Shown here: positions 4,926-32,781 of the stretch, piece after piece
How positions within the stretch are numbered: the first letter of the stretch is position 1
Layout: each line of letters starts with the position of its first letter
Source of the DNA: Candidatus Zixiibacteriota bacterium
Lineage (GTDB): Bacteria > Zixibacteria > MSB-5A5 > GN15 > FEB-12
NCBI GenBank assembly: GCA_028289585.1
Contig: JANQPI010000020.1
Span: 96,039 to 160,038 of the forward strand
DNA: 64,000 nucleotides
Direction of reading: 5' to 3'
Program-made: the position numbers and the translations under genes
The notes under the pieces: model-generated
Database searches by the model: none
What the model was told of the DNA's origin: nothing
The model's input: only the letters and a program-made list of their open reading frames with translations

Positions 4926-7072
4926 GTGCGATTCCGAATTTTGCCGAAGTGGCGCTGAACGGCGATCACCAAAACACCGACAACGATGCGACTCGATCCG
5001 ATTCGGTCTGGCTGACACCCGAACAGATCGAGGTTCGGCCGTTCTACGAGGCCGACGATATCGGCGATGCCGAACAGACCGCCTATCTGCCCGGCCTCCC
5101 ACCATTCCACCGAGGACCGTACGCGACAATGTACGTGATGCGTCCGTGGACGATACGTCAGTACGCCGGTTTCTCGACCGCTGAGGAATCGAACGCTTTC
5201 TACCGGCGGAATCTCGCCGCCGGTCAACGCGGACTATCAGTCGCGTTTGATCTCGCCACCCACCGTGGCTACGACTCGGACCATCCACGGGTTGTTGGCG
5301 ATGTCGGCAAGGCGGGCGTGGCGATCGATACAATTGACGACATGAAGATCCTCTTCGATGGCATCCCGCTTGATCGCATGTCGGTGTCGATGACGATGAA
5401 CGGGGCAGTGCTACCGGTCATGGCATTCTACATTGTTGCGGCCCTCGAACAGGGAGCAACACTCGATCAGCTCACCGGAACAATCCAGAATGACATTCTC
5501 AAAGAGTACATGGTCCGCAATACGTACATCTATCCGCCGGCCGGATCGATGCGGATCATTGGTGACATCATCGCCTACACGGCCGAGCAGATGCCGAAGT
5601 TCAACTCCATATCGATCTCCGGCTATCACATGCAAGAAGCAGGCGCCACGGCTGATCTCGAAATGGCGTACACGCTGGCTGACGGCCTTGAGTATGTCCG
5701 CACCGGCCTGAACGCCGGGCTGACAATCGACCAGTTCGCACCGCGACTGTCGTTCTTCTGGGCGGTCGGTATGAATCCTTTCATGGAGATCGCCAAGATG
5801 CGCGCCGGGCGGGCACTGTGGGCGAAGCTGATCAAGCAATTCGACCCGAAAAACCCGAAGTCACTCATGCTGCGGACACACTGTCAGACATCAGGGTGGT
5901 CACTGACCGAACAGGATCCATTTAACAACGTCGCCCGGACCTGTCTTGAAGCGATGGCGGCCGCGATGGGACATACGCAATCCCTGCATACCAATGCTCT
6001 CGATGAAGCGATTGCATTGCCGACCGACTTCTCAGCCCGCATCGCCCGGAATACACAATTATATCTGCAGCATGAAACGGGCATCTGCGACGTCATCGAT
6101 CCGTGGGGCGGTTCGTATTATGTCGAATACCTCACCGATCAGCTGATGACACGAGGTTGGGCACACATTCAGGAAGTCGAGAAGCTTGGTGGAATGGCCA
6201 AAGCAATCGAGACCGGATTGCCGAAGATGCGCATCGAAGAGGCCGCTGCCCGCCGTCAGGCGAAAATCGACTCCGGCGCCGAGGTGATTGTTGGGACCAA
6301 CAAGTATCGACTCGACAAAGAGGATCCGATCGAAACGCTCGAAGTCGACAACCAAGCCGTGCGGCGGAGCCAGATTGAACGTATTCAACAGGTGAAAGCG
6401 AAGCGCGATGAAGCTGCGGTCAAAGAAGCGCTTGCTCGTCTGACCGCGGCCGCCGAAAGTGGATCGGGGAATCTGCTCGCCCTCTCAGTAGAAGCTGCTA
6501 AAAACCGAGCCACGCTCGGGGAGATCAGTTATGCGATGGAGAAAATCTGGGGACGGCATGTTGCGGAAACCAAGACAATCTCCGGGGTTTACTCAGCGGA
6601 GTATGCGGACATGACGACGATCAGCGACGTCCGGAAACTGACCGACCAGTTTGAGCATTCGGAAGGACGGCGACCACGTATTCTGATTGCCAAGATGGGT
6701 CAGGACGGTCACGACCGCGGCGCTAAAGTAATCGCGACCGCGTTCGCCGATCTCGGCTTTGATGTCGACGTTGGACCGCTCTTCCAGACTCCCGAAGAAA
6801 CCGCCCGCCAGGCAGTTGAAAATGATGTCCACGTTGTCGGGATGTCGTCGCTGGCCGCCGGTCACAAGACGCTGCTTCCGCAGTTGATTGACGAACTGAA
6901 GAAGCTTAATCGTGAGGACATTCTCGTGGTTGTCGGTGGGGTCATTCCCCATGCCGACTACGATACTCTCTACGAAATGGGTGCTGCGGCGATCTTTGGC
7001 CCGGGGACCGTCATTCCCGAAGCAGCACGTGACATTCTCGCCAAGCTCGGTCTGAAAGCCGCTGCTGAATAG
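4922..7072 (+). CDS. mutB: methylmalonyl-CoA mutase large (alpha) subunit with C-terminal B12-binding domain
   Basis: 716 aa; [11 protein letters not shown]-terminal cobalamin-binding motif [21 protein letters not shown]; 4-bp overlap with mutA. Confidence 0.93.
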
Positions 7073-12714: not shown

Positions 12715-12910
12715 ATCTTGCTCCTCTCGAACTCCGATCGCTGGTAGTCGTCATTGATGGTCGTAACCCGATGCGGCGCTAATGGTTCCAGCGCGCCGGG
12801 ACGACCGGTGGACGGGCCGCCTGTCCGCGTCTACCGTCCTAAGCTGATAATATAGAGTGTGGATTCCCGCCCGGCAAGGTGTGCGCGGAGCGGCAGCCGG
12901 CGCAGGGCGC

Positions 12911-13414
12911 TTAGGAACTGCCGAGCACCGACCAGACGAAGATACCGATCATCACCGCCGCGATCGTCACTTTCCCGACTCCCGCAACAAAGACGCCGAT
13001 AAACGACCCGAGTCCCGCGCGCAACGCGTTCGTGCGATTCCTGCCGAGTGTTGCCTCACCGACGACCGCACCGGCGAATGACCCGACGATAAACGTCACG
13101 ATCCCGAAGACCGGGAAGATAATCCCGGCAATCATGCCAACCACCGCGCCAATCGCCCCGGCCCATCCCCCACCGAAACGCTTCGCGCCGAACGCCGCAC
13201 CAAGATAGTCGAGCGCCCACGCGATCAGCATCAGCCCCGCCAGCCAGGCGACCGCCTCTCCGGAGATGTAGCTCCAGTCAGTCAGCCAGCCGAAGAGTAA
13301 CGCCGGGATGAAGATGAGCACCGTCCCCGGGATAACGGGCAGAACGGTCCCCGCGACTCCGACCAACATGACCAGTAGGGCGAGGATGAAGAGGGTAATT
13401 TCGATTCCGGTCAT
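12911..13414 (-). CDS. DUF456-family small integral membrane protein
   Basis: Gly/Ala-rich 4-TM protein; start chosen at MTGIEITLF... Confidence 0.55.
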   Translation of the reverse strand: MTGIEITLFILALLVMLVGVAGTVLPVIPGTVLIFIPALLFGWLTDWSYISGEAVAWLAGLMLIAWALDYLGAAFGAKRFGGGWAGAIGAVVGMIAGIIFPVFGIVTFIVGSFAGAVVGEATLGRNRTNALRAGLGSFIGVFVAGVGKVTIAAVMIGIFVWSVLGSS

Positions 13415-13552
13415 ACAGACAGAATACGCTCTGAAGTTGCAAGTATTCAAGTCCCCATCAGATCGTGCAAAAAAACCTGAAGCATCTGGTTGCGGCTACG
13501 TACACCAGAGTCAAACAGAACGCGTAATGCGGGCCAAAGACCGGAGGGCAGG

Positions 13553-14398
13553 ATGAGAACGTTGATTCGAGTAGTGCTGATCTTTATCGGGACGTTTATC
13601 GTCGTTGCCGGGTGGGGATGGTTCAATATCTGGCGCTCGCCGAAGTTTGCGTCCGATGCCCTGACCCTGACCGCCTGCCAAGAGAATCCGGCAATCCTGA
13701 GCATGGAACAGTACGGCGCCGTTGGTAGCCACGCTCGCCCGTATGTCGTGGAACGACCTGACCTGGTGCTGTTCGGCGCCGAGCATACGAAAGACCCCGA
13801 TGACCCCCAGATTGCCAGAATCGAATCGGCGTGGGCGCAACTCGACCCGACGGTAGCACTTGTCGAGGGTCGACTCGGCTTCCTGATTCCGTACGTCATG
13901 AATCCGGTACCGACATTCGGCGAGAGCGGCTATGTCGCCAAACTGGCCCGGAGCGACGGTGCGGCGATCTATTCCTGGGAGCTCCCCAAGTCGGAGTTGA
14001 TTCTTGAACTCGTTAAGGTATACCCGCCCGAGCAGGTCGCACTCAGTCAGGTTCTGAGTCCGTATTTCAGCAACTACCGGTTCGGCAAGCCGGACGATCC
14101 GGAAGCGTTCGTCGCGCAATTCCTCAACCGCGCACACTACCCCGGACTGGAGAACACGATCGGCTCAATAGATGATATCGACCAAATCTGGCAGCAGGAT
14201 TTCGCGGATGTCGCCGACTGGCGGGAAACGTCAGATCAATGGGGACTGCCTGGCTACCTAGGCGAAATCGCGGCGTCGGCCAACATGATCCGCAATCAGC
14301 ATTTGGCCTGTGTGATTGATGGGTTAGTGGCGAACGGCGAGCGAGTGTTTGTGATCGCCGGTTCCAGCCATGCCGTCTGCCTCGACCCGGCGCTGTGA
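13553..14398 (+). CDS. membrane-anchored hypothetical protein, possible TraB/GumN family
   Basis: N-terminal TM helix; LFGAEH..D near N-terminus and VIAGSSHAV near C-terminus resemble TraB/GumN signature motifs; weak. Confidence 0.4.
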   Translation: MRTLIRVVLIFIGTFIVVAGWGWFNIWRSPKFASDALTLTACQENPAILSMEQYGAVGSHARPYVVERPDLVLFGAEHTKDPDDPQIARIESAWAQLDPTVALVEGRLGFLIPYVMNPVPTFGESGYVAKLARSDGAAIYSWELPKSELILELVKVYPPEQVALSQVLSPYFSNYRFGKPDDPEAFVAQFLNRAHYPGLENTIGSIDDIDQIWQQDFADVADWRETSDQWGLPGYLGEIAASANMIRNQHLACVIDGLVANGERVFVIAGSSHAVCLDPAL

Positions 14399-14408
14399 TG
14401 CGACAACC

Positions 14409-14748
14409 CAAGTGACCTGGGTGCCCCACCTTTCAGGTGGGAATCTTTGCGGCAGCCGAAGGACGACGAGTCATCCCGGCCCCTCTGTCATCCCGGCCCC
14501 TCTGTCATCCCGGCCCCTCTGTCATCCCGGCGAAAGCCGGGATCCAGTCTTTGTCGGGTGGGGCAGGTGAGGACACCTGCCGCCCACAGGAGAAAGTGAC
14601 GAATCGCGCTGTTCCGAGATTGTCATAGTGGCGGAGACGCGGCATGGGTTGAGAGTAGCAGACAGCTTTTGCAAGTGGCAATCACATTGGGGGAGCCGAA
14701 TTTGAGAATCCCACCCTAAAGGGTGGGCCACCCCGGCCTGATGACCAC
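14409..14748. repeat. MITE-like palindromic repeat element, copy 1 (about 340 bp): terminal inverted repeats GTGCCCCACCTTTCAGGTGGGAATC / GAGAATCCCACCCTAAAGGGTGGGCCACC, three perfect 17-bp tandem units GTCATCCCGGCCCCTCT plus hairpins CCCGGCGAAAGCCGGG and GGCAGGTGAGGACACCTGCC
   Basis: Seen directly; second copy at 15507-15850. Confidence 0.7.
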
Positions 14749-14755
14749 AGAGGTG

Positions 14756-15361
14756 CTATCGCGATGAATCGGAGAGAATGGAATCTCTTAGCCAAGCTCG
14801 ATGTATGCTATCTGCAATTCGAATGCTATCCCTGATTCTCTTACGGTGCTGCTCAACTCCGAGGTATCGCACACTACCCCTGTAAAACCGAACAGAGTCT
14901 CCCTCGCATGCCCATGATACTTGAAACAGATCTCCCCCACAGTAATCAGTGGTCACAAGGAAGGAAACCTCCGCAGTGTCGTTAGCGTCTGGCGCAACCC
15001 GAATCGGTATCCTAACGTCCACGGAGCCTCGAGCCTCTACCTCAAATTCGACCAGAGAGTTCGAAGGCTGCGCCAAGTCATTACTGCCCATCGGTCCCAA
15101 CACACACGTCATTGGCCCATGGCAAACAGAGGTGAATGTGACTATTAGATCGAAGGACTGTCCAGCAAGGGGGCCGACACCGTGTTTAGATCGGAAAGCA
15201 GAGGGCCACAGAGCGTTGGCACGAGCGCTACCGCGTAACGTATCTCCACGCGTTTTGGCTTCCCAATCCTTTGTCGGCGGCTGTGAGCCGATGCCGACGA
15301 AGATAGTCACCAACACTACCAACAATCTCAAGAAGTCCGTAGCTACCGTCATAGTCCCCAT
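14756..15361 (-). CDS. hypothetical secreted/membrane protein; diverged third paralog of the N-terminal domain of the 1098-aa protease (shared EFEVE...DYCxG segment)
   Basis: 201-aa ORF in low-GC island; local similarity to ORFs 20049-21053 and 16756-20052 N-termini; preceded (on its own strand) by the 91-bp repeat. Confidence 0.4.
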   Translation of the reverse strand: MGTMTVATDFLRLLVVLVTIFVGIGSQPPTKDWEAKTRGDTLRGSARANALWPSAFRSKHGVGPLAGQSFDLIVTFTSVCHGPMTCVLGPMGSNDLAQPSNSLVEFEVEARGSVDVRIPIRVAPDANDTAEVSFLVTTDYCGGDLFQVSWACEGDSVRFYRGSVRYLGVEQHRKRIRDSIRIADSIHRAWLRDSILSDSSR

Positions 15362-15420
15362 GGATCCTGTAGATTTGATTCACGTCATCGTGCGCGTGTG
15401 TAAGAAACGACTGCACAGGG

Positions 15421-15511
15421 AATCCGTCCAATGCCGATTTCAGCTCCCCCGATTGAACCTACCATTTGTTCTTAATGTACTATATACTAGCCAATCGGGC
15501 GGCTGATCGCC
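15421..15511. repeat. 91-bp direct repeat copy A (AATCCGTCCAATGCCGATTTCAGCTCCCCCGATTGAACCTACCATTTGTTCTTAATGTACTATATACTAGCCAATCGGGCGGCTGATCGCC)
   Basis: About 95% identical to 21094-21184; AT-rich core TTAATGTACTATATACT could be a promoter for the downstream minus-strand gene. Confidence 0.75.
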
Positions 15512-15850
15512 TGGGTGCCCCACCTTTCAGGTGGGAATCTTTGCGGCAGCCGAAGGACGACGAGTCATCCCGGCATCCCTGTCATCCCGGTCCTTCTGTC
15601 ATCCCGGCGCCTCTGTCATCCCGGCGCAGGCCGGGATCCAGTCTTTGTCGCATGGGGCAGGTGAGGACACCTGCCGCCCACAGGAATACGCTAAAAAACT
15701 CTACTCCTTAACAGTCTCCTGATTGGTGAAGCTTACGGGGCAATATAACCCCTAAATCGAGGTTTTATCTGGACCAGTTTTTGGGCGAAAGGTCACCTTC
15801 GCTAGCCATCTGGTAATGGACGGGTGGCCCACCCTGGGCTTGATACTTAG
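15507..15850. repeat. MITE-like palindromic repeat element, copy 2 (degenerate 17-bp units GTCATCCCGGCATCCCT / GTCATCCCGGTCCTTCT / GTCATCCCGGCGCCTCT, same hairpins; degenerate right end near GGGTGGCCCACCC)
   Basis: Direct comparison with copy 1; right boundary approximate. Confidence 0.6.
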
Positions 15851-15883
15851 CCTGCCTCAATGCCAGAGAATAGCCCCGTTTAA

Positions 15884-16708
15884 CTACTGACAGGTGGGCA
15901 GTGGAGAAAACGTGATGAACAGATGGTCCTGCAGAGCAGTTAGATCCGACAACCCTACGATACCGTCGGGTGAACCGTCGCAGTTCGCTTCCGCCGGACA
16001 AATCAAGGGACTAAGAGAGATAAAAAGGTGATCGACCAACGCACTGAAGTCCGCTAAGGACACTATGTCGAGTGGGTCGCCATCAACATTGCCAACGTCC
16101 GCGACACAACAACTACCTTGATCTTGTACGTGTAGGGCACCTGCCCAGACCGGATACCAAAGCGTAGTCGGTGTCCCACCCGCTGCCGCATAAACAACAT
16201 TTGGGAAGAGAGCGTGGGATGTATCCATTACGAAGGTGTTTCCAGCCGTCCAATGCTCAACGGTAAAGTGGAATGTCACCAGCTCTTGAGACTGGGGAGC
16301 AGCGGTCAAACCCGGCAAACTAATTAGCTGACCGGCAAACATGCAATGCTTCAGACTGTTAGATGAATCGACGTTGTTATTGTACATCGATGTGAACAGA
16401 TAGAAATTGAATGCACTGTCAACTGCTACAGGAACAACGGAACTATCCAGTCTGACTCCATCCAGATTCCAAACAAACTGTGCAGCTGCCATCTTGAGAA
16501 ACGATGAGTCGAGCTTGTACATGAACGACACAGCGAAGCTGGAGTCACCAACACTCAGATTAAGTGGATCAGACAACCTGAGTTTCATCGAATCAGGAAC
16601 ACCCGGGTCTAGGATGTCAAAAGCCGGTGCACTCGGAGCCGACAACAACGCCGTGCAATACAAGACCAAAGCAAAGCAACGGACTCCCCGAAAAGAATTG
16701 CATTTCAT
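15884..16708 (-). CDS. secreted protein with signal peptide and C-terminal tandem dockerin-like (EF-hand-loop) module; probably co-transcribed with the upstream metalloprotease
   Basis: 274 aa; N-terminal hydrophobic signal; C-terminus ...CCVADVGNVDGDPLDIVSLADFSALVDHLFISLSPLICPAEANCDGSPDGIVGLSDLTALQDHLFITFSPLPTCQ; 47-bp gap to protease gene. Confidence 0.6.
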   Translation of the reverse strand: MKCNSFRGVRCFALVLYCTALLSAPSAPAFDILDPGVPDSMKLRLSDPLNLSVGDSSFAVSFMYKLDSSFLKMAAAQFVWNLDGVRLDSSVVPVAVDSAFNFYLFTSMYNNNVDSSNSLKHCMFAGQLISLPGLTAAPQSQELVTFHFTVEHWTAGNTFVMDTSHALFPNVVYAAAGGTPTTLWYPVWAGALHVQDQGSCCVADVGNVDGDPLDIVSLADFSALVDHLFISLSPLICPAEANCDGSPDGIVGLSDLTALQDHLFITFSPLPTCQ

Positions 16709-16755
16709 GGCATAACCTCCTCCTCTAAAATACTAATGACCAAACTCCATCGCAA

Positions 16756-19700
16756 TCACGGACAGATCTCCAATAGACTGAAGCTGATATAGAGATGATC
16801 AATTATCGCTAATACGTCAGCCTGAGAAACGCCCGGCTCACAACTCCCTCCGACAGTTCGAAGGTTAGCACTCTCAGGGCAATGAATCGCAATAAAGTCA
16901 ATAAATAGATGATTGATGTATATGCTCAAGTCAGATTGAGTGACGTCGTTGTCACCGAATCCATATATATCACCCGCAGTTCGATCTGAAAAACGGCACG
17001 GACCGGCCTTACAGGTCAAGTGGCCATTCTCGGAAGCAACGTCAAACTTGCCGAGATTTGTTGACAAGTTCCAATCCTCTAGGAACTCAGACATACTATC
17101 CGGCTGTGTGATAACTAAGAACTGAAGTATGTCGGTAAGCGAGTGTTGAAGTGTATCCTTGATACCATCCGGATTCGGAGTAAAGACCCCGGTCCAGTTG
17201 CCGCTTTCAAAAGGACTATAATTGTCATCCTCGCCTGCGTCATAGAGATCCCAAATCAAGCAGCCCGCTGAAGCCTCAAACAAGCAATGATCCGCACATC
17301 CGGATTGACCAGAGAAATCGACACCATTCTCTAGTCTGTATTGACGACCCGTCTCAAGGTCAAGAACCGCGGCAAACGTATACTCATAGTTCCAGTTGTA
17401 GCCAAGGGAACCCAAGCCTGTACCAAGGGTATCGCGTAGAGCGCCTTGGAAGAACTCGGCGAATCCCTCGGACGAAGCCTTAACCGGGTCCGAATTCGAA
17501 GAGTCGCACCAAGAATGAGAGGAGATTAGACTTGTCCGGTCGTCAAAGAAACGGTAGTGGTCGTGAAAAGCGTGGGCATACTCGTGCAAAATAGCCTCTG
17601 GGTCCCGCAAATCGTATAGGTAGTCAACTTTCCAACTACTTATGCTAATGTGACCGTCGAGGTAGCCAGTCGTGTCAAAAGAACTTGTCGACATTGTTAC
17701 CCGAGGCGGTGGATCGATTCCGACTCGTTCGGTGAGTTGTTCAGCAGCGAAGCGTAGCACATCGAGAGCATAAAACACATCGGAATTGATCGAATCCGGA
17801 GGCAGGATGAAGTCGACAGTGTAGTTCCCTCCAGGTAAGTCCATTGACAGTACTGAATCTCGAAAGTACCCGTCGGAAAAATTGACCGATGTAACGGAGC
17901 AAACAGGCGTCACCGCAACGAGACGGATATAAGGATCGATCGCACCACTCCCGATTTCTCCATCTTCATTAGTGAATTCGAAAGTGAATTTACCCAGGGA
18001 ATCAGTAACCGTCGTGGCTATTAGGTCATCAGGATTTCCAAAAATAAAATCCTCGTCCCAGGCTTCCACGCGAGCTCCAATGATAGGTCGATCACCTTCG
18101 TTGTTTGGTCGTCTTCGATAATAGGTGGCAGTCCCACGTATAACGACCTTTCGGTTGTAGAACTGGTACTCTCGAGTGGCAGTATTATTCGTCTGGTCAG
18201 GCTCGCCAAAGCCACCAAGACTGTTCAGAATTACAACGATATTGCCAAGAAAACTCGCCTGTTCAATCGGTTTAAATTCGACATCTTGGAAAAAGAGTAG
18301 CTGATTAGTTTGCGGTTGAATCGATTCAACAAAAAGATATGTCGATTGGGATACCTGATTATTGACTTCTATCGAAAATGCTCCGGATTCACCCAGCCCG
18401 TCATTCCTTACGCCGATGCAAACGCGATTCGGCTCACCCATGTACAACGTGTCATCAACCAAGCAACCGAGATCTTGAGAGACCGAAAAGACGTCCGGTA
18501 GGAAGGGATCCTGGTAGAACTCTAGGTCAAAGTTTGGCTTCCCGCGAACTTCCAAGTCGTCAATATAGACTCCTAATTTGTCATTTCCATCGTCATAGCC
18601 CGAACGGAAAGTAAAAATTAGAAAGACAGAATCCGGTAGAGTATCTATAGGCGTAGAGCCTTGACGAAACGTCTTGAGCGGAAATGAAATCGACTGCCAA
18701 CCGTTTGACGTTCCTCCGTAGGTGAGGAATCCGTTGACTAGGCTATTAGTGTTAAGGGAATCTCGGGAGTGAGCATATTGTACTACAAAAAAATTGTTTG
18801 AGAAGACCTGTTCAAAATCAAACCAGCACTGGAAAATGCAGTTTGCACTACGGAAGCCAGATAAATCAATTCCGATAGTATCGGCAAGAGTCGCGATCAT
18901 CCCTGGCGGGTAGGCTGGCGCGGGGCTATCCGCCGTGTCACTTGCACCTGCACACCAAATCGACGGTACAAAAGCACTCCCATGATAAAAGCTCGCGCCC
19001 CAGTGGGCCACGCCGTTGCCGGGATCGGAGTCGTAGCTTTGCCATCTATCCGATAAACCAAAATTGAATTCATCCTTGAAAATGATCGAGTCACTCGTGT
19101 TCACTTCTCTTCGCGGAGAAGAATCGCTAGTCGTGTCCTGCTGCTCACCAGGGGCGGTGATTCGGGAGTTCACAAATTCAGCAAACCACATCAATAGCGA
19201 ATCAATCTGAGCCGCGGCTGTTGATGTCGCTGTCTTTGAAACATACGCCCAGTAGTGATCGGGTGCGTACGGTACGAGTGAGTCGACTCGATCTCGCACA
19301 GCAGCAACCACCTCAGGTGTGAAAATAGCCATTCTCCGCCGAGCGGTCTCGGGAGTTTGATCGGAGTGTGGTGTGTTCACTGAGGGGTCGCGGATAGGCT
19401 TGAGGTCGTTTGCTAATCTGACCGAGTCAATCATCTCGCTGACTCTGCGATTGTGCTCGAGAATCTCCTCAAGCGGAATACGACCTTGCATAGTATCGGA
19501 GGCCCAGTATTGGCTCGCCATTTCACGCAATCTCGCGTTCAGCGACCATCTCTCCAGAACTTCGACAACATTCTGGCCATTATTGAACGCATCATGTGGT
19601 TTATTGCTGACTGTCACTGAATCGACATAGTCTGCAATGTAAATATGAAAGAAATTGAATAATCCGTTACAGTAGTCGACACTGACAGGAAATGCGGTGT

Positions 19701-20052
19701 AGCGCTCAGGCGGATACTGCAATTCGACCTCAAACTCAATCTGCCGCTGCCCATTGAGATCCAACTCCAACTCATTGGGAACAGGACGTGGCATTTCTTG
19801 AGGGCTAGAAACCCCTATTCTCACAGTCGGACAGTTAAGGTACTCATCCCGGGGCATCGCCGTTACACGCACCCTAACAGGCTGTCCGCGGATAACCCCG
19901 CCGACAACTTCGAGACGAGTTTCGATTGAGACATTCGGCAGCTTGCGGGGCGTAGCATCGCTTTGTGATACGAGAATTATTAGCGAGAAAAGAACGAAAA
20001 TCGTAAGTCGCTGTGGAGCAATCATCACACACCCCCAGTTTGGATGACTCAT
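16756..20052 (-). CDS. large secreted zinc metalloprotease (HExxH: LHEYAHAFH) with N-terminal paralogous domain, central beta-rich domains and C-terminal dockerin-like module
   Basis: 1098 aa; signal-like N-terminus; HEYAH motif; C-terminal ...DNDVTQSDLSIYINHLFIDF...GVSQADVLAIIDHLYISFSLLEICP; low-GC composition. Confidence 0.7.
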   Translation of the reverse strand: MSHPNWGCVMIAPQRLTIFVLFSLIILVSQSDATPRKLPNVSIETRLEVVGGVIRGQPVRVRVTAMPRDEYLNCPTVRIGVSSPQEMPRPVPNELELDLNGQRQIEFEVELQYPPERYTAFPVSVDYCNGLFNFFHIYIADYVDSVTVSNKPHDAFNNGQNVVEVLERWSLNARLREMASQYWASDTMQGRIPLEEILEHNRRVSEMIDSVRLANDLKPIRDPSVNTPHSDQTPETARRRMAIFTPEVVAAVRDRVDSLVPYAPDHYWAYVSKTATSTAAAQIDSLLMWFAEFVNSRITAPGEQQDTTSDSSPRREVNTSDSIIFKDEFNFGLSDRWQSYDSDPGNGVAHWGASFYHGSAFVPSIWCAGASDTADSPAPAYPPGMIATLADTIGIDLSGFRSANCIFQCWFDFEQVFSNNFFVVQYAHSRDSLNTNSLVNGFLTYGGTSNGWQSISFPLKTFRQGSTPIDTLPDSVFLIFTFRSGYDDGNDKLGVYIDDLEVRGKPNFDLEFYQDPFLPDVFSVSQDLGCLVDDTLYMGEPNRVCIGVRNDGLGESGAFSIEVNNQVSQSTYLFVESIQPQTNQLLFFQDVEFKPIEQASFLGNIVVILNSLGGFGEPDQTNNTATREYQFYNRKVVIRGTATYYRRRPNNEGDRPIIGARVEAWDEDFIFGNPDDLIATTVTDSLGKFTFEFTNEDGEIGSGAIDPYIRLVAVTPVCSVTSVNFSDGYFRDSVLSMDLPGGNYTVDFILPPDSINSDVFYALDVLRFAAEQLTERVGIDPPPRVTMSTSSFDTTGYLDGHISISSWKVDYLYDLRDPEAILHEYAHAFHDHYRFFDDRTSLISSHSWCDSSNSDPVKASSEGFAEFFQGALRDTLGTGLGSLGYNWNYEYTFAAVLDLETGRQYRLENGVDFSGQSGCADHCLFEASAGCLIWDLYDAGEDDNYSPFESGNWTGVFTPNPDGIKDTLQHSLTDILQFLVITQPDSMSEFLEDWNLSTNLGKFDVASENGHLTCKAGPCRFSDRTAGDIYGFGDNDVTQSDLSIYINHLFIDFIAIHCPESANLRTVGGSCEPGVSQADVLAIIDHLYISFSLLEICP

Positions 20053-20104
20053 ACTACCAATGACAGTATAGAGTATGACGTACCGCGCACGCAGTCACCA
20101 AACT
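20032..20104. repeat. 73-bp segment (5' UTR plus first 7 codons of the protease gene) near-identical to 21023-21094
   Basis: Exact match except a 1-bp indel; tandem duplication signature. Confidence 0.85.
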
Positions 20105-21053
20105 CGATTTCAGGAGTCTCCGGTTTCTTTCGATTTGATTCAACGTCTTTCTTCTGAAGATGCCGCGTCCTCACGTACTCTTCGAACCACTCCAAGAGCT
20201 CGTCGACTCGCTGTTTGGCCGATGCAGTCGCCGTCTTCGAAACATATGCCCAGTAATGATGTGGCGCATACGAAACCAATGAATCCACTCTAGATCGTAC
20301 TGCATCAACTTCCTCGGGATTTAGCAGGAACATTGCCTGTCTAACCGAACTCTGGCTGCTGTCGGACAGGCTAGTCTCCAAAGTCGTTGCGAAAATCGGG
20401 CCAAGCCCCATCAACGTTCGGATCGAGTCGATCTGTCTACGAACCTCATCGTTATGTTGGCCAATATCGTCTATCCGAAAGCTTGGACCGAGAGTATCTG
20501 GAGACAAGAAGCGGCTCTCTAACTGCTTCAGTTGCTGTTCGAGGCGCCGCCTTTCTAACGTCGCAGGAACACTCGTCCCGCTTCTAAAACCGATGTCGGG
20601 TACATCCGTGACAACTACAGAATCAACGTAGTCGACGATAAAAAACTCATAGAAATTGAGATATCGATCACAGAATTTGAAGCTGACCGAGTACGCCAAG
20701 TATAGCTCGGGGAGAAAGTTGACTTCGAACTCTACATCTATCCTCCCCGATGACTGCCGATCTACCTGCTGCTCGGTCGGACTCGGTTGGGGCATATTCC
20801 GAGCCACGTGCAAATCGACTAAGACCGTTTCGCAGGTGTCGAACTCGGGCCGAGGAATCGCGGTAACGCGTAGGCTAATTGGATGCCCTCGAACTATTTC
20901 GCCAACAACTTCTACATTGGCATCGATCGATACGTCGGGTAGAGCGCGGGACCGGGCATCGCTCTTTGAAACAGCGGTGAGGGTCAGTAAAAGAACAAAT
21001 GCCAAGACTCGGCATGAGTAGATCATCACACACCCCCAGTTTGGATGACTCAT
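20049..21053 (-). CDS. paralog of the N-terminal domain of the 1098-aa metalloprotease (stand-alone, about 334 aa), stop overlaps protease start (ATGA)
   Basis: Shares MSHPNWGCVMI start and similar following region (...LP[ND]VSI...VEVVG..RG.P...RVTA.PR... EFEV...); start chosen at the conserved MSHPNW methionine. Confidence 0.55.
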   Translation of the reverse strand: MSHPNWGCVMIYSCRVLAFVLLLTLTAVSKSDARSRALPDVSIDANVEVVGEIVRGHPISLRVTAIPRPEFDTCETVLVDLHVARNMPQPSPTEQQVDRQSSGRIDVEFEVNFLPELYLAYSVSFKFCDRYLNFYEFFIVDYVDSVVVTDVPDIGFRSGTSVPATLERRRLEQQLKQLESRFLSPDTLGPSFRIDDIGQHNDEVRRQIDSIRTLMGLGPIFATTLETSLSDSSQSSVRQAMFLLNPEEVDAVRSRVDSLVSYAPHHYWAYVSKTATASAKQRVDELLEWFEEYVRTRHLQKKDVESNRKKPETPEIEFGDCVRGTSYSILSLVV

Positions 21054-21094
21054 ACTACCAATGACAGTATAGAGTATGACGTACCGCGCACGCA
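21023..21094. repeat. second copy of the 73-bp 5' UTR/start duplication
   Basis: Direct sequence comparison. Confidence 0.85.
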
Positions 21095-21184
21095 ATCCGT
21101 CCAAAGCCGATTTCAGCTCCCTCGATTGAACCTACCATTTGCTCTTAATGTACTATATACTAATCAATCGGGCGGCTGATCGCC
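21094..21184. repeat. 91-bp direct repeat copy B; a further degenerate copy lies at about 20098-20130 inside the 3' end of the paralog ORF
   Basis: About 95% identity with 15421-15511. Confidence 0.75.
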
Positions 21185-21223
21185 CACCAACAATGCCGAC
21201 ACCGCTAGCCACAAGGGGTTACG

Positions 21224-23011
21224 ATGCCGACAGTTGCCTCTACCGAAACGCCGGTTGACTTTACCAGCAACCCGCAGGTCCGCGCCCTCCCCAACTACCT
21301 TCGACAGTTCATTGTCGAACAGAACTACGACGCCTACCACCCGGTCGACCACGCCGTCTGGCGTTACATCATGCGTCAGAACTGCCATTTCCTGCGCGAG
21401 AACGCCCACAAAGTCTATTTCAAGGGGCTGCTCGAAACGGGGATCGACCTCGACAAGATTCCGTCGATCGCCGAAATGAATGACATCCTGGGCAAGATCG
21501 GCTGGGGCGCGGTGGCCGTCGACGGGTTCATCCCCCCGGCGGCGTTCATGGAGTACCAGGCGTACAAAGTGCTCGTCATCGCCGCCGACATGCGGCAACT
21601 GCATCATATCGACTACACCCCCGCGCCGGATATTGTCCACGAGGCGGCCGGGCATGCGCCGATCATTGTCGACGAGGAATACTCGAACTACCTGCAACGC
21701 TTCGGCGAAATCGGTGCCCTGGCGATGTACTCGAAGCGAGATTACGAGCTCTACGAGGCGATTCGCAAGCTGTCGATTCTCAAAGAAACGCCTGGCGCCG
21801 ATGAAAACGAAATCGACGCCACAGAAAAGCAGGTCAAATGGCTACAGGAAAATCTCGGGGAACCGTCGGAAATCGCCCGCCTGCAACGTCTGCACTGGTG
21901 GACAGTCGAATACGGCCTGATCGGCACGCTCGACAAGGCCAAGATCTACGGTGCGGGATTGCTCTCATCGATCGGCGAGTCGGTCAAATGCCTCGAACCG
22001 AATGTCAAGAAGTTGCCGTACACGCTCGCTGCGGCTGACTACGCCTTCGATATCACCGAGATGCAACCGCAACTTTTTGTCACCCCCGACTTCACACATC
22101 TGCACAACGTTCTCGAAGAATTCGCCGACACAATGGCACTCCGTCGCGGCGGCGCCTACGGCGTCAAGATGGCGATCGACACCGAGGCAACCAACACCGC
22201 CGAATACTCAAGCGGTTTACAGGTGTCAGGAATTTTCAGCGATCTAAAGACCGATGCCAATGGCGACGTGATCTTTATCAAGACATCGGGTGCGACCACC
22301 CTCGCCCATCAGCGGACGTGTCTCGACGGTCACGGTCCCGAGTATCATGCCGACGGCTTCTCCTCGCCGGTTGGTAAGTTTAAGAACGTCCCGCGCGATC
22401 CGGGTGATCTCGACGATTCCGCGCTCGAAATGATGGGCCTGCGTTTCGGTCAGCCGGGCAAACTCGAATTCGAGTCCGGCATCACGGTAGAGGGAACGCT
22501 CGAACGGGCCGTCCGCAAAGACGACAAGCTCCTCTTACTCGTCTGGTCGAACTGTACGGTCACCTACGGCGGCGAAACACTGTTCCGTCCGGAATGGGGA
22601 ACCTACGACATGGCGGTCGGTGCGACAATTACGTCGGTCTTCTGCGGTGCTGCTGACAAAGATGCTCACCACGAAATCGCTCCGGTCTCGCGCACGCGAA
22701 CGATCAAAGTCCACTACACCGATAAAGAGCGCGCTCGCCAGAAGCTCTACGGTGAGGTGCGGAAGATACGCGACGGCCAGGGGTCGACCGAGGCCCTTCC
22801 GGATATCTGGACCAAGGTCACCACCGAGCACCCCGACGACTGGTTGCTGTCGACCGAGATTCTAGAACTCGTCGAGCATCTCAAAATCTATCCAGATCTC
22901 AACAAACGGATTCGCGCCTATCTCGCCACCAAGGCAGAGGAGGATGCGATCACGCGCAAGTTGATTGAGGACGGTCTCAGTCTCTCGTTCCGCATCACTG
23001 CCCGCGACTAG
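21224..23011 (+). CDS. phhA: long-form aromatic amino acid hydroxylase (phenylalanine 4-monooxygenase) with a roughly 300-aa C-terminal extension of unknown function
   Basis: Iron-binding/pterin region PDIVHEAAGHAPIIVDEEYSNYLQRFGEIG matches the PAH/TH/TPH catalytic signature; total 595 aa. Confidence 0.8.
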   Translation: MPTVASTETPVDFTSNPQVRALPNYLRQFIVEQNYDAYHPVDHAVWRYIMRQNCHFLRENAHKVYFKGLLETGIDLDKIPSIAEMNDILGKIGWGAVAVDGFIPPAAFMEYQAYKVLVIAADMRQLHHIDYTPAPDIVHEAAGHAPIIVDEEYSNYLQRFGEIGALAMYSKRDYELYEAIRKLSILKETPGADENEIDATEKQVKWLQENLGEPSEIARLQRLHWWTVEYGLIGTLDKAKIYGAGLLSSIGESVKCLEPNVKKLPYTLAAADYAFDITEMQPQLFVTPDFTHLHNVLEEFADTMALRRGGAYGVKMAIDTEATNTAEYSSGLQVSGIFSDLKTDANGDVIFIKTSGATTLAHQRTCLDGHGPEYHADGFSSPVGKFKNVPRDPGDLDDSALEMMGLRFGQPGKLEFESGITVEGTLERAVRKDDKLLLLVWSNCTVTYGGETLFRPEWGTYDMAVGATITSVFCGAADKDAHHEIAPVSRTRTIKVHYTDKERARQKLYGEVRKIRDGQGSTEALPDIWTKVTTEHPDDWLLSTEILELVEHLKIYPDLNKRIRAYLATKAEEDAITRKLIEDGLSLSFRITARD

Positions 23012-23067
23012 GTCACAAGTGACCCTCGCTAAGGAGACTCCTTGCTGATTCGTATTCCTTCCGATAA

Positions 23068-23087
23068 ATGCAACTTATCGGTTGCAT
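23068..23087. promoter_or_regulatory. perfect inverted repeat ATGCAAC-N6-GTTGCAT, candidate operator (ArsR-family) overlapping the -35 element
   Basis: Seen directly; lies in the promoter of the SRPBCC-ArsR pair. Confidence 0.5.
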
Positions 23088-23109
23088 AACCCCAGAAGCT
23101 TCGTATAAT
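23082..23109 (+). promoter_or_regulatory. sigma70-like promoter: -35 TTGCAT (23082-23087), 16-bp spacer, -10 TATAAT (23104-23109)
   Basis: Consensus-like hexamers with canonical spacing about 24 nt upstream of ATG 23133; AGGAGG RBS at 23120-23125. Confidence 0.5.
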
Positions 23110-23113
23110 TCGC

Positions 23114-23129
23114 GCAACCAGGAGGTTGC
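23114..23129. promoter_or_regulatory. second palindrome GCAACC-AGGA-GGTTGC overlapping the RBS, candidate second operator half-site pair
   Basis: Seen directly; shares the GCAAC/GTTGC half-site with the upstream palindrome. Confidence 0.4.
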
Positions 23130-23132
23130 ATA

Positions 23133-23579
23133 ATGAACGATACGATCGAAAAGGTAGTCGAACTCGCCGCTCCCGTCTCCCGCGTCTGGCAGGCGGTGAC
23201 CGATCACAAAGAGTTCGGTACATGGTTCAAGGTTGATATCGACGGTCCGTTTCGGGCCGGGGAGCTGTCTCGTGGGCAGTTCACTAATGAGGGCTACGAG
23301 CACGTGCGTTGGCTGGCAAAAGTCGAGGCGATCGAGCCCGAGACCTATTTCGCCTTTCGCTGGCATCAGGAGGAGATCGACTCGGCACGCCGCCTCGAAG
23401 AGGAACCGACGACCTTGGTCGAATTCCACCTGGAGCCGACAGAGTTCGGTACGCGGCTGACGATTCGCGAATCCGGTTTCGCCGGTCTCCCCGAGGCATC
23501 GCGGCTCGAATCGCTCAAGCGCAATACCGAGGGCTGGAACTTTCAGGCTGACAACATCACCGATTATGTCGGTTCGTGA
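23133..23579 (+). CDS. SRPBCC-superfamily protein (AHSA1/Aha1-like activator-of-Hsp90-ATPase-homolog family)
   Basis: 148 aa; typical partner of ArsR regulators; overlaps downstream gene. Confidence 0.65.
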   Translation: MNDTIEKVVELAAPVSRVWQAVTDHKEFGTWFKVDIDGPFRAGELSRGQFTNEGYEHVRWLAKVEAIEPETYFAFRWHQEEIDSARRLEEEPTTLVEFHLEPTEFGTRLTIRESGFAGLPEASRLESLKRNTEGWNFQADNITDYVGS

Positions 23580-23904
23580 ATCATCGCCACCGCCTGTCGA
23601 TGCCGCTCCGATCTTCGCGGCGCTGGGTGACCAGACTCGTCTGGCTCTGATTGGGCGACTGCTAAACGGCGAACAGCGCTCGATAACCGAATTGAGCCGC
23701 GGCCTCGCTCTCACTCGCCAGGGTGTGACCAAACATCTTCACATTTTGGAAGCCGCCGGTGTGGTTGCCGGACAACGGGTCGGCCGTGAAAGTCGATACG
23801 AGCTGCGTCGCGAACCGATCGACCGGGTACGAGAGTTTCTCAACCTAGTGTCTCGGGAGTGGGATGTCGCCATCGACCGTCTCAAGTCACATCTTGAGGA
23901 GTAA
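23566..23904 (+). CDS. ArsR/SmtB-family winged-HTH transcriptional regulator
   Basis: IFAALGDQTRLALIGRLLNGEQRSITELSRGLALTRQGVTKHLHILEAAGVV helix-turn-helix region. Confidence 0.8.
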   Translation: MSVRESSPPPVDAAPIFAALGDQTRLALIGRLLNGEQRSITELSRGLALTRQGVTKHLHILEAAGVVAGQRVGRESRYELRREPIDRVREFLNLVSREWDVAIDRLKSHLEE

Positions 23905-24310
23905 GCGACTGCGCCGTGCCCGTGTAGTGCCGATGCTCGGCGCGGTATTCGACTCAAATCTGCTGTTGTTGCTGGGAGAGAACGGTTTATCAGTGCGATC
24001 CTGTCCCTTGTGAATGACGTCACAAAAACGCCGCTCATCGAACCTCTGCAAGATGCTGTATGATAGGACCTTACGATTCACGCAGTACAAGTTAGTGCCT
24101 TAAACAACGACACAATCGTAGAATAATAGACAGCTTTAGACAGTATCTGTACCAGCTGTCACACACTATCTCCCTATCGCACACCACGTTTCGATTCTCA
24201 TCAAAGCCTCACCAAATTGTCGCCGATTGTACTTCGGACAAAGAAGGTCGCAATTATCTTGGGAGTGATCAAACGCTGGACGAAAGGTCCACTTCTGGAG
24301 GAGGAGTGAT

Positions 24311-24517
24311 ATGCCGATGATTCCCTTGATTCCGCCGACGCCGAATGACTGCGCCGTCTGCCCGCCTAGCCGGCTCCTGGAATTGCCTGTCGACTTTTCG
24401 ACCGGGGGCAAATTCCTGCGCGAAATCGATCGCTTCTTCGAGGGCTACGAGCAGGGCACTCAGGTTCTCGGTCAAATTGATCGAACGGCGCCAATTCGCT
24501 TGTATAACGAGTTGTAG
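24311..24517 (+). CDS. small hypothetical protein (68 aa) with good RBS (GGAGGAGGAG)
   Basis: ORF with upstream SD-like sequence in an otherwise AT-richer noncoding stretch; no recognisable domain. Confidence 0.25.
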   Translation: MPMIPLIPPTPNDCAVCPPSRLLELPVDFSTGGKFLREIDRFFEGYEQGTQVLGQIDRTAPIRLYNEL

Positions 24518-24565
24518 CGCCGGTCACTTGCTGTCGCCGTAACCGGGCGCTATTCTGACCCGATC

Positions 24566-25036
24566 ATGGATGCGCTGCGGTTAACAGTTGTCTTACTACT
24601 CGGAGTGGTCATTGGTCTGAGCGACGTCGCTCGGGCTAACGACTCGATCCCCCCCGCTGATTCCCTCTCCCTCTATGAGCGGATCGGTGCCGATGACGGT
24701 CTCACCAGTTTGGTCGAGAGCTATCTCGCCCGTGTCGTTGCCGATTCGTCTCTCGCCCGCATTCATCGCCATCGTTCCGTGGAGTCACTTGGATGGATCA
24801 CCGGGCTGGCAACCGGCTTCCTCTGTCGCGAAACGGGCGGTCCTTGCTGGTCGCCGATAACGCTCAGGTGGTTTTCCCGCTTCGGCTCGCTGACACCCGC
24901 GGAATTCGTGCGGCTTCTGGATCACGCTGCAACAACCCTGGACATCCATGAAATCGATGCCGATTCGCGGGCAGAGTTCTTGCGCATCTTGTCGAGCTAC
25001 GAACCCGATTTGGTCGCGACCTCGACAAACGAATGA
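24566..25036 (+). CDS. secreted truncated-hemoglobin-like (2/2 globin) protein
   Basis: Signal-like N-terminus; LYERIGADDGLTSLVESYLARVVADSSLARIH resembles trHb B-E helix pattern (LYEKLGG...FY..V..D). Confidence 0.45.
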   Translation: MDALRLTVVLLLGVVIGLSDVARANDSIPPADSLSLYERIGADDGLTSLVESYLARVVADSSLARIHRHRSVESLGWITGLATGFLCRETGGPCWSPITLRWFSRFGSLTPAEFVRLLDHAATTLDIHEIDADSRAEFLRILSSYEPDLVATSTNE

Positions 25037-25101
25037 CCATGGACGCACGTCCCCGCGTATATCACAAAGACAAGCTACTTCAGACATAGGGAGCGATCAC
25101 G

Positions 25102-28100
25102 GTGACCAAGCTTTTCACGCTGCTCTGCGGCTTTTGTCTGCTACTCTCTCCGGCGATGGCCGAGACAGTCTTTGACGAACTCACGGCCGACCAAGAAATC
25201 GCGGCCTTCCAGGTTGAAGCGGTTTACGAGACCGATGCCGGAGCTGGTATGGGTGCACGATTCCGTCACGTCCCAACCGGCTTCGTACTCGACCTCCTGC
25301 GTATCCAGTCGGTTCCGCAGGCGTTCATGTGGGTAAACTCACCGCCGTTCTCTGACGGTGGCGAGCCCCACACGCTCGAGCATCTGCTTCTCGGTAAGGG
25401 GAATCGCGGCCGCTACGTTGCGTCACTTGAAGACATGGCGCTCGGATCGTCGTCGGCCTACACCGAACAACTACGCACCTGCTATCACTTCCACACTAAC
25501 GCGGGAACCGAAACGTTCTTCCTGCTTTTCCGCGAGAAACTTGATGCGATGCTGAACCCGACTTTCACCGATGAAGAGATTCGTCGGGAAGTGATGAATT
25601 ATGGCATCAAGATCGATCCGACGACCGGTGATCGCACCCTGGAGGAAAAGGGGACGGTCTATAACGAAATGGTCAGCTCGTTTGAGCGCCCGTGGGGCAA
25701 CCTGTGGTACGAAATGCGTCAGAATATCTTCGGCGCCGATCACGAATACTCGCGGTCGGCCGGTGGCACGCCTGAAGCGCTGCGCCAACTGCCGCCGGAA
25801 GCGATCCGACGCTTTCACGACTCGACCCACCAGCTCTGGAACATGGGGGCTGTGGCAGCCCTTCCTAACGAGATTGCTGTCGACGACGCGCTGCAGTTGT
25901 TTTCGGATATTCTCGCCGCAGTGGATCCGGATGCCGGTCCCGGTGAGGATGCCGCCACCGCCTATGATCGCCTTCCTCCGTTCCGCTCAGCCGAGCCGGG
26001 AGCGATTCTGCAGACCGCCTTCAAGTCAGCGAACCCGCAGGAGCCCGGCTTGATGTTCCTTGCCTGGCCGCCCGTGAATCGACTTGAGAACAACGATTGG
26101 ATGATGGCCGATCTTCTCATGGAACTCGTGGCCACCGGCCAGACGTCGAACCTCCACAAGAAGCTGATCGACAGTCGCGAGCGCGTCACCGACATCGGTG
26201 CCACCTCGATTTTTGGATGGGTCGACGACGGTCCGGGTCAGTCGTTTATGATCGGTATCTCCGATGTCCGGCCGTCGGCTACGTCACCTGCAATGATCGA
26301 TTCCATACGCGGCTTGATTGTCAACGAATTCGCCCGCATTGCCTCGTGGTCCGATGATGATCCAGACCTCGCAGCGTTCAATGAGCGCGCGATGACCCGT
26401 CTGATAGCCAACGAACGAGCCAATCGGATGTTTCTCAATCAGCCTCCGCGCTGGGGGTACCGAGGGACCGGATCGGCCTGGCTCGACCTGCTACAACGAT
26501 TGCATCGGACCGGAGAGTTTCGCCGATCACTCACGCGTAACGCGGAGGTGGCGTTCGCTCGTGCCCAATTGGAAACCGAGGGTAACATCTGGAAAGCGTA
26601 CATCGACGGTTGGCAGCTCGGACAGCAGCTCCCCTACGCCGGTGCGACACAACCCGACCCGGGAATCATTCAGGCGACGCAGGACGCCACGGCGGCGCGA
26701 CTTGGTGCCAAGTTGGCCACCCTGCGGGAGACCTACAACGCCACAACCGATGACGAGGCAATAGCGGCGTTTGCTGCCGACTACGACGCTCAGACAGCGA
26801 TCCTCGATTCGATCGCCGCGGAAAACACCGTACCAAGCTTCATCGACAACCCACCCCTTACGATCGATCCAACGCTCGCCTATCGCATCGAGTCGCTCCC
26901 CGGCGGCGGCGATCTGGTCGTGTCGACCTTCGACAACATCTCCAGCGCGACGATCGGATTAGCAATGGACCTCTCGGTGACGCCGGAATCCGAACTACTC
27001 TATGTTGCCGCGCTACCGACACTGCTTCGTCAAACCGGAGTGATCCGCGACGATCAACCGATCCCGTTTGACCAGTTCGATGAATCGGTACGCCGGGAGA
27101 TTCGCTCTCTCGATGCCTACGTCACGACCAATCACCGGAGTGAGCGTGCCGAACTTGTGGTCCGCGCCTCCGGTTCGGAGATCGCAGAGAACCGAACAGC
27201 AATCGGATGGCTTGAGACGATGCTGCTGGCCCCGGACCTTCGGATTGAAAACCTCCCTCGCATCATCGATGCAATCGATCGCACGCTGTCGGGACATCGG
27301 ACTCGGATGCAGGGCTCCGAAGAATCGTGGGTGACCGAGCCTGCCAACGCGTACTGGCGGCAGGATAATCCCCTGCTGCTCGCGACATCGTCGTTCATGA
27401 CCGAAGCCCATCTGTTGCAGCGATTCCGCTGGCAGTTGCGAGCGGCGCCGGACCAGGCGACTGGCGACGCAACATCGATGTTCATGCAGCGCCTGAATGA
27501 TCTGGGCACTCTCGGTGGCGATCGCGCCACGGCCTCGGCGTTAGTCAAATCGATTGCGGACAATGCTGCCGACCAATCGTCGCACTCCCTCGCCGTTGAT
27601 TACCTTGCGCTCCCCGAAGCCGCCCGAGAGCTCGTTCATGAGGCAGCCGTTGATCTCGTCGCGAATCTTCCGGGGATTCCGGATGAGTCGTTCGCCGACG
27701 ACTGGGCACTGCTGGTTACGCAGATGATGGCTGACCTGCGGACCTCACCCGCAACTGCACTCGCCAACGCTGACAACGTGCTCAACCGACTCCGCAATCA
27801 GGCGGCGGTACGTGGGTTCGCGATCACAAACGCGACCGAACAATCGGCCTTGATCGAACGCGTCAGTTCGATCGTTGCGAAGCTCGATGACACACCGATC
27901 GAGCGCGTGAAGTACACACGCCGAGCGCGCGTCGACGACCGTATTCAGCAACGTTTGGATGATCGGACCGAGCCGCTGCTGGTCGGCTTGGTGAACAACA
28001 ACACGAGTTCGGGCGTGCACATTCACACCGCCGACTGTGCGTCATTTTTCGACAGTGATACGTCGCTCCTGCTCAATTTCCTCGCTGCTCGCCTTTACGG

Positions 28101-28680: not shown

Positions 28681-28707
28681 TTCGGGAAGCTCCTGAGATT
28701 CGACAGA

Positions 28708-28740
28708 CAGCCGCCGCAGAGAAAAACTCTGCGGCGACTG
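28708..28740. terminator. bidirectional stem-loop (CAGCCGCCGCAGAG-AAAAACT-CTCTGCGGCGACTG) between convergent M16 and symporter genes
   Basis: 10-12 bp GC-rich stem seen directly in the 65-bp convergent intergenic gap. Confidence 0.55.
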
Positions 28741-28745
28741 TTGGT

Positions 28746-29984: not shown

Positions 29985-30052
29985 ATGCGCCTCAGATGGT
30001 AGGAATGTGCTGCGGGAGTATAGAGACTTGGGACAGGAGAAACAAGCGACCC

Positions 30053-31440: not shown

Positions 31441-31445
31441 TTCGT

Positions 31446-32555: not shown

Positions 32556-32781
32556 AACGGGCCTCCGAATAGCGGAATCGTTTGTCCGGTCTTCGACATC
32601 CGTCGCGGAATTCTCTACAACCGGCGGCTATCCTATCGCCTCGTTTGCCAAAAGAGTTCAATTCGGGTACGGCTCTGGGCGCCCGGTATTCGCAAAAAAA
32701 ACTTGGGCAGGTGGAGGTTCGGTCCGTTAATTAAAGCGTGGTTCGGCATCCGAATCGCTCTATCATGAAGATGCTAAACTG

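Follow-up and report, generated by a model that had tools for sequence, protein, structure and literature searches.

Why should two nearly identical stretches of upstream DNA stand before genes that share no nucleotide similarity with one another? The question is raised by a repeat, here called B, which occurs twice in the window (the whole 64-kb stretch of DNA that was analysed), as B1 at 15421-15511 and B2 at 21094-21184. The two copies are direct repeats that agree at 86 of 91 positions, with five substitutions and no gaps, so that the 91-bp direct repeat of about 95% identity reported in the preliminary description is real. Similarity is weakly prolonged to 15410 and 21083, giving 102 nt at 91%. 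Comparison of B1 with B2 by blastn inside the window gave E = 3e-37, far beyond chance, and the 24-nt core of B did not occur once in 100 shuffles. The mismatches are scattered along the repeat, leaving 20 nt as the longest uninterrupted identity. A search of the window for the core motif of B, with three mismatches allowed, returned only these two copies. Like the A copies and the decayed copy described below, B1 and B2 are listed without strand.

Both copies lie upstream of minus-strand genes, as had been stated. B1 extends from -60 to -150 relative to the ATG at 15361 of gene X (14756-15361, minus strand), and B2 from -41 to -131 relative to the ATG at 21053 of gene Y (20049-21053, minus strand), or from -68 to -158 if Met10 of Y is the start. 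B2 is at the same time situated in a 170-nt divergent spacer between Y and a plus-strand gene for phenylalanine (aromatic amino acid) hydroxylase (21224-23011), the start codon of which lies 39 nt past the end of B2 and is preceded by a GGGG Shine-Dalgarno-like site. A degenerate third copy, already noticed earlier, proved real but weak. It is called b (20097-20165) and corresponds to the left ~60 nt of B; positions 20082-20113 match at 82% (blastn E 1e-3), and alignable remnants continue to ~20165. The copy b is the continuation of a near-perfect 76-nt repeat, C1, and fades between 20097 and ~20165. It lies within the Y reading frame, at its 3' end, where it now codes for the C-terminal tail. 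As described beforehand, a decayed B precedes the gene for the 1098-aa protein, the third member of the family.

The genes between and around these copies are mostly orphans. Y encodes a 334-aa secreted-type orphan protein. Gene p1098 (16756-20052, minus strand) encodes a protein with a Y-like N-domain, an HEYAH motif (HExxH) and a dockerin-like C-terminal domain, which it shares with the product of p274 (15884-16708, minus strand), an orphan protein whose N-terminus resembles a signal peptide. The orphan ORF X encodes 201 aa and has a hydrophobic N-terminus; its coding signature is weak (GC 0.56/0.50/0.53 at the three codon positions), and it may be a gene in decay. GC3 of X, p274, p1098 and Y is 0.50-0.55, compared with 0.66-0.77 in neighbouring genes, and the GC content of the segment is 49-53% against 57%. 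Searches of 5.8 billion proteins found no homologs of Y or X besides themselves, the N-domain of p1098 matched only Y among 1.84 billion representative proteins, and PADLOC and NCBIfam returned nothing for the island genes.

Y aligns with residues 1-297 of p1098 without a gap (44% identity, E 3e-85), and 4-fold sites of the pair are 33% identical, which is saturation; judged by this alignment, Y is an ancient paralog of the p1098 N-domain. The paralog family put forward in the preliminary description holds in this part, for Y and the N-terminal 300 residues of p1098, but is not demonstrable for X, which gave BLASTP E 1e-3, hhalign probability 4% and tblastx E 0.04 against Y/p1098. The matches of X were always colinear, and a very remote relationship between X and Y is possible on that basis. 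At the nucleotide level, comparison of the X region with the Y/p1098/p274 region yielded nothing beyond 14-18-nt chance matches, and no other repeat of at least 35 nt connects the neighbouring genes in the window.

The stop codon of Y overlaps the ATG at 20052 of p1098. Met10 of both proteins is the likelier start as read from the sequence, being located 6 nt after GGGGG and yielding a canonical signal peptide; with this start, the Y stop lies 24 nt before the start of p1098. From the sequence we infer that Y, p1098 and p274 look like one operon. Y amounts to a free-standing copy of the p1098 N-domain (19153-20052) encoded immediately upstream, for which a role as prodomain, chaperone or inhibitor is conceivable. 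The dockerin-like domain common to p274 (15884-16114) and p1098 (16756-17000) is ~77 aa long, carries the motif D-x-L-x-x-x-x-D-H-L-F-I and recurs at the C-terminus of unrelated secreted proteins of relatives (L098, L100) as well as in dozens of representative proteins, perhaps serving for sorting or anchoring in this particular lineage.

All of these orphan genes lie within 8.5 kb (12715-21223, no strand) between a minus-strand gene for HPPD and the plus-strand hydroxylase gene. The left flank is a minus-strand homogentisate-pathway operon (FAA hydrolase, aminotransferase, HGD, HPPD), and the right-hand hydroxylase is part of this pathway too. In the Zixibacteria MAG L002, the HPPD and hydroxylase genes are adjacent and divergent; L098 carries a 3-kb sensor kinase between them, L101 has three small genes at this position, and in L100 a 1224-aa secreted protein is encoded upstream of the hydroxylase. 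Since the contents of the gap differ among relatives, the 8.5 kb is regarded as an insertion at a variable spot, and on this gene-order comparison the HPPD/hydroxylase junction behaves as an insertion hot spot inside a Phe/Tyr catabolic cluster.

The nearest relatives of the hydroxylase are 57-67% identical, and in relatives the DNA upstream of the hydroxylase did not resemble A, B or C significantly. L002 has a similar-looking motif, TAATTGTACGATATA, which was rejected as chance-level (92 of 300 shuffles scored as well). The search for an empty-site or single-allele relative returned none, the nearest hydroxylase being 67% identical. The 24-mer core of B had no match in GTDB representative genomes and the 20-mer core none in JGI metagenomes, while a 20-mer from the right arm of B gave 14 metagenome matches, all due to chance and without extension, and none in IMG/VR. 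A blastn search of plasmids and phages with B1 plus A2 returned a single 38-nt hairpin match only.

How the copies of B arose is shown by two further repeats and by the joint at which one of them meets B1. The window contains only four repeat families of at least 35 nt, and three of these, A, B and C, each in exactly two copies in 64 kb, interlock at this locus. B is no stand-alone repeat; the preliminary description saw the repeat itself correctly but missed the interlocking A and C repeats and the B1|A2 joint. The fourth family consists of two methylmalonyl-CoA mutase paralogs, where a 56-nt repeat (3664-3719 and 5766-5821, 77%) represents a conserved motif of the adjacent subunit genes.

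The A copies, A1 (14416-14591) and A2 (15510-15685), are 176 nt long and 94% identical. A1 lies 3' of X (minus strand) and of a 302-aa ORF (plus strand), and A2 lies 3' of p274 (minus strand). The element comprises 3.6 copies of a 17-nt tandem unit, GTCATCCCGGCCCCTCT, and three GC-rich hairpins. One of the hairpins, ATCCCGGCG-nnn-GCCGGGATCCAG, looks REP-like by its sequence and matches an unannotated spot of a Sphingopyxis plasmid at 89.5% over 38 nt. Hairpins of the type CCCACC...GGTGGG that are related to A were also seen at 14710-14727, and an inverted 14-mer at 15822-15835.

All boundaries of A and B are sharp. The end of B1 and the start of A2 share the dinucleotide CC (15510-15511), with zero bases between the two elements, forming a permuted end-to-start joint with a 2-nt overlap, a configuration characteristic of tandem or additive segmental duplication. 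The two repeats are equally diverged, with 10 differences in 176 nt for A (5.7%) and 5 in 91 nt for B (5.5%); their spacing is unequal, 1094 nt for the A pair versus 5673 nt for the B pair. On the plus strand, the order is thus the 302-aa ORF (+), A1, X (-), B1 fused to A2, p274 (-), p1098 (-), C1 with b, Y (-), C2, B2 and the hydroxylase gene (+).

The joint was also found in an independent sequence graph. The k = 31 Logan unitigs of SRR20820731 match the window exactly over 14562-15539, 15656-20050 and 21065-33011, and the first of these spans the whole of B1 together with the B1|A2 joint. The unitigs break only at exact repeats of at least 30 nt, ending exactly 30 nt into the runs of exact identity, which measure 65 and 33 nt in A and 73 nt in C. 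B leaves the k-mer graph unbroken because its longest exact run is 20 nt.

The third repeat, C, is found on the minus strand at 20021-20096 (C1) and 21022-21097 (C2), with 75 of 76 positions identical. Given the Met10 start, the C block spans -68 to +5 of the start codon, approximately so for C1 around the likely start of p1098 (ATG 20025-20023). C2 covers the leader and start region of Y and includes a weak sigma-70-like pair (TTGCGT at 21095-21090, TATACT at 21071-21066). Around the start, the identity is perfect over 73 nt and ends in sharp edges, compared with a nucleotide identity of ~54% elsewhere between Y and p1098, a background at which a 73-nt run has a probability of ~2e-20. The downstream edge of the run lies 2 nt past the likely start codon. 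To judge by these edges and this contrast, recent gene conversion has most likely homogenised the C block. The identity may also owe something to selection on the leader, since the edges of the run coincide with the start codon and the -35-like hexamer.

With a confidence somewhat above even, we take B to be upstream (intergenic) DNA that was copied along with A by duplication or recombination, and that would represent shared upstream regulatory DNA and not a recombination site itself. That B has a regulatory role is held with moderate confidence. In the proposed pathway, the minus strand would carry two transcription units, X and Y-p1098-p274, each flanked 5' by a B copy and 3' by the hairpin cluster of an A copy. 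B1, which closes one such frame, would have been joined to A2, which opens the next, through an illegitimate joint with 2-nt microhomology. The source event may have been a tandem duplication of the A...B segment or the arrival of a second A...B allele, taken from a related strain and inserted additively, in this case anchored by homology on one side (homology-facilitated illegitimate recombination, PMC5361080). Gene content between the frames would afterwards have been exchanged or lost, which would account for the ~94.5% identity within A and B alongside the lack of any nucleotide similarity between X and the Y operon.

The evidence for a tandem duplication is divided: the permuted joint with microhomology and the equal age of the two repeat pairs are present, whereas equal spacing and a homologous interior are absent. 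The equal divergence of A and B fits a single event. Because the spacings are unequal (1094 versus 5673 nt) and the interiors unrelated, a plain duplication is insufficient and at least one further event is needed, in which two alleles with conserved flanks would have been joined, or each copy would later have lost a different part. An older tandem duplication, comprising part of B, C and the N-domain, would have given rise to Y and the N-terminus of p1098; its copy of B would have decayed to b, and the C block around the start codon would later have been homogenised. X and the Y operon would in this way inherit the same upstream control region from B. The earlier suggestion of upstream DNA spread by gene duplication agrees with this anatomy, with B on the 5' side of both minus-strand units and a decayed B before the third family member, and to it are now added three points, namely that B1 and A2 meet in a permuted joint, that A and B are equally old, and that the start region carries a sharply bounded, homogenised block of 76 nt.

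The interior of B bears on what the segment may do. It forms an imperfect palindrome of 75 nt (15435-15509 in B1, 21108-21182 in B2), running CGAT..TCAGC..CCCGATTGA, ~34 nt, TCAATCGGG..GCTGA..ATCG around the AT-rich core TAcTATATAcTA (15473-15489 in B1, 21146-21162 in B2). As single-stranded DNA, the palindrome is more stable than shuffled sequences on the minus strand (z = -4.7 for B1 and -2.1 for B2). Each of the five substitutions between B1 and B2 breaks a pair of the palindrome and none is compensatory; each copy has one different arm mismatch. With two copies only, such a comparison has no power to detect selection. The palindrome region lies at about -36 to -126 from the weak candidate promoter of Y and is also directly upstream of the divergent hydroxylase.

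A consensus promoter scan of B detected no site at threshold. With the scan relaxed to 8/12, two pairs were found on the plus strand of both copies (TTGAAC, 19 nt, TACTAT; CTACCA, 18 nt, TATACT), and one, for Y, on the minus strand where B2 borders C2 (TTGCGT, 18 nt, TATACT). The AT-rich core had been proposed as a promoter, which these scans do not support, as it gave no sigma-70-type match on the minus strand and the weak matches within B (8/12) are oriented to the plus strand. Rfam returned no match at the gathering threshold and chance matches only, at E up to 1, and the RNA leader folded no better than shuffles (z between -1.1 and +0.4). A known cis-regulatory RNA or sRNA was therefore rejected as a candidate, there being neither an Rfam match nor an unusually stable leader fold.

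These properties would also suit a locus in which B1 and B2, like A1 and A2, are leftovers of recombination that have no regulatory role and are alike because the event was fairly recent. The identical divergence of A and B, the uncompensated substitutions in the palindrome arms, the lack of a consensus promoter, the leader RNA that folds like its shuffles and matches no Rfam family, and the older copy b that was let decay are all consistent with this. It is at odds with the layout of the hydroxylase spacer, in which B2 fills the usable part and leaves 39 nt, so that some promoter must be located within B2 or past it; the AT-rich core of 20 nt and the right arm, which carry none of the five substitutions, argue weakly in the same direction. 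We regard a functionless remnant as a real but rather unlikely possibility.

The orientation of the weak matches inside B means that the segment may serve the hydroxylase, not X or Y, or nothing. Taken further, B would be the promoter region of the hydroxylase, and B1 a stray copy that fires into the A2 hairpins without serving the minus-strand genes, yielding a short RNA or antisense transcripts to p274/p1098. This is in line with the finding of sigma-70-like pairs inside B on the plus strand only, in both copies, with the position of B2 39 nt before the hydroxylase ATG and its GGGG Shine-Dalgarno-like site, and with the first A2 hairpin, followed by AATCTTTG, coming directly after B1. The matches themselves are weak (8/12, long spacer) and below the scan threshold, however, B has no significant similarity to the upstream regions of the hydroxylase in relatives, and no RNA family was found, and we consider such a plus-strand role improbable.

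It had further been proposed that the B copies bracket an invertible or excisable 5.7-kb segment. Inversion is excluded by the orientation of the copies, as recombination between direct repeats deletes or duplicates the intervening DNA and never inverts it. Excision would cast B1 and B2 as attL/attR-type sites of an integrative island, and the direct repeats do bracket low-GC genes for orphan secreted proteins at a spot that varies in relatives. The claim found no support in the gene content: no integrase, recombinase or transposase was detected among ORFs of at least ~150 aa in 472-28680 and ten larger ORFs beyond, or in precomputed Pfam calls for 21.2-33 kb; the island gave no integrase or recombinase among Pfam, NCBIfam or PADLOC matches; and no tRNA or tmRNA gene that could serve as a target is present in the 64 kb. 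The composition gives a mixed picture. The genes enclosed by B1 and B2 are low in GC, X is atypical as well although it stands outside the pair, and the bracketed segment begins with a native-like A copy, an element native to the left flank, which an att model does not explain. The mismatches are moreover spread along B, with no identical core longer than 20 nt. An excisable island is thus very unlikely.

We give similarly little credence to the idea that the A...B segment is an undescribed non-autonomous gene cassette with a 176-nt hairpin-rich left end and a 91-nt palindromic right end, units of which would accumulate head to tail at the HPPD/hydroxylase hot spot, mobilised in trans by an enzyme whose gene lies elsewhere in the lineage, or to its variant in which B and C act as recombination handles that reshuffle the expression of secreted proteins. 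Slighter still is the chance that B alone is MITE-like, or that A...B segments are non-autonomous cassettes mobilised in trans and stacking head to tail. The sharp ends of A and B, the internal palindrome of B and the hairpins of A, and the presence of two tandem units with the same ends and different cargo are compatible with it. The palindrome is offset, though, with the left 14 nt outside it, so that the termini of B are not inverted repeats; the flanks contain no target-site duplication; the window has two copies only, both at this locus; and searches of GTDB representative genomes, JGI metagenomes, IMG/VR, plasmids and phages returned no copy. GTTRRRY/RYYYAAC core sites, a transposase and an integrase were likewise absent. 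Two specific candidates were rejected: a MITE, for the lack of terminal inverted repeats, target-site duplication and dispersed copies, and an integron attC site or cassette array, for the lack of an IntI integrase and of GTTRRRY on the strands of B or the ends of A. Finally, an assembly artefact in which two strain haplotypes were concatenated can practically be dismissed: the contig is metagenome-derived and the ~5% divergence of the copies is what co-existing strains would show, but the B1|A2 overlap of just 2 nt means that graph mis-joining cannot produce the joint, which is present in the independent k = 31 unitig that is exact over 14562-15539.

Read as copied upstream DNA, the locus would record three successive rearrangements, namely an old tandem duplication, the homogenisation of a start region and, later, the duplication of a frame that left a preserved microhomology joint, all at a spot that differs between relatives. 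If B is functional, new orphan secreted-protein genes in this uncultured lineage related to Zixibacteria would have gained one shared control region by duplication, without evolving a promoter from scratch.

Several known systems resemble parts of this arrangement. MITEs of the Correia/ERIC type, which carry promoters, are ~100-nt elements with inverted repeats and an AT-rich centre found near gene starts; B is alike in its ~100-nt size, inverted repeats and AT-rich centre, and differs in having no terminal inverted repeats, target duplication or dispersed copies. The C block resembles gene conversion between tandem paralogs in being a sharp-edged, 73-nt identical tract in paralogs with saturated synonymous sites, the difference being that here its limits are very nearly those of the leader plus start codon (-68 to +5 of Met10), so that selection on an expression module may contribute as well.

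The B1|A2 joint is best compared with additive gene displacement, described for T6SS effector-immunity modules and Rhs orphan arrays, in which incoming DNA is anchored at a conserved flank and joined illegitimately at its other end, the old module being kept beside the new one and conserved boundary sequences being repeated along the array (Kirchberger et al. 2017, PMC5361080). Such a process would yield the order A1-X-B1|A2-W-B2 with a microhomology joint, as seen here. The present locus differs in containing no toxin or immunity genes and no conserved coding 5' anchor, so that the anchors would be the non-coding A and B. For this case we infer the mechanism from one locus.

The closest counterpart of B itself is the putative mobile promoter, of which >4000 families have been catalogued, with similar 50-100-nt upstream regions located before non-aligning genes (Matus-Garcia, Nijveen and van Passel 2012, PMC3488235). 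Of these families, 68% are two-membered, the mean identity is 92%, and one of the proposed origins is 'random duplications mediated by recombination' (PMC3488235). A putative mobile promoter is defined as a sequence of >50 nt with at least 80% identity, at about -150 to -50 before the translation start and with non-aligning adjacent coding sequences (PMC3488235). B agrees with this definition in every sequence criterion (91 nt, 94.5%, two members), in a class that is operational because promoter activity is outside its definition. It differs from the typical family in that its copies are 5.7 kb apart in one locus and tied to A by a duplication joint, and in that its two downstream genes may be very remotely related to each other. 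With thousands of reused upstream regions already catalogued, neither the succession of rearrangements nor the sharing of a control region would surprise a specialist. Among these systems, B is real but nothing out of the ordinary, an upstream segment that has been reused and is found together with its partner repeats in a foreign island of orphan secreted-protein genes.
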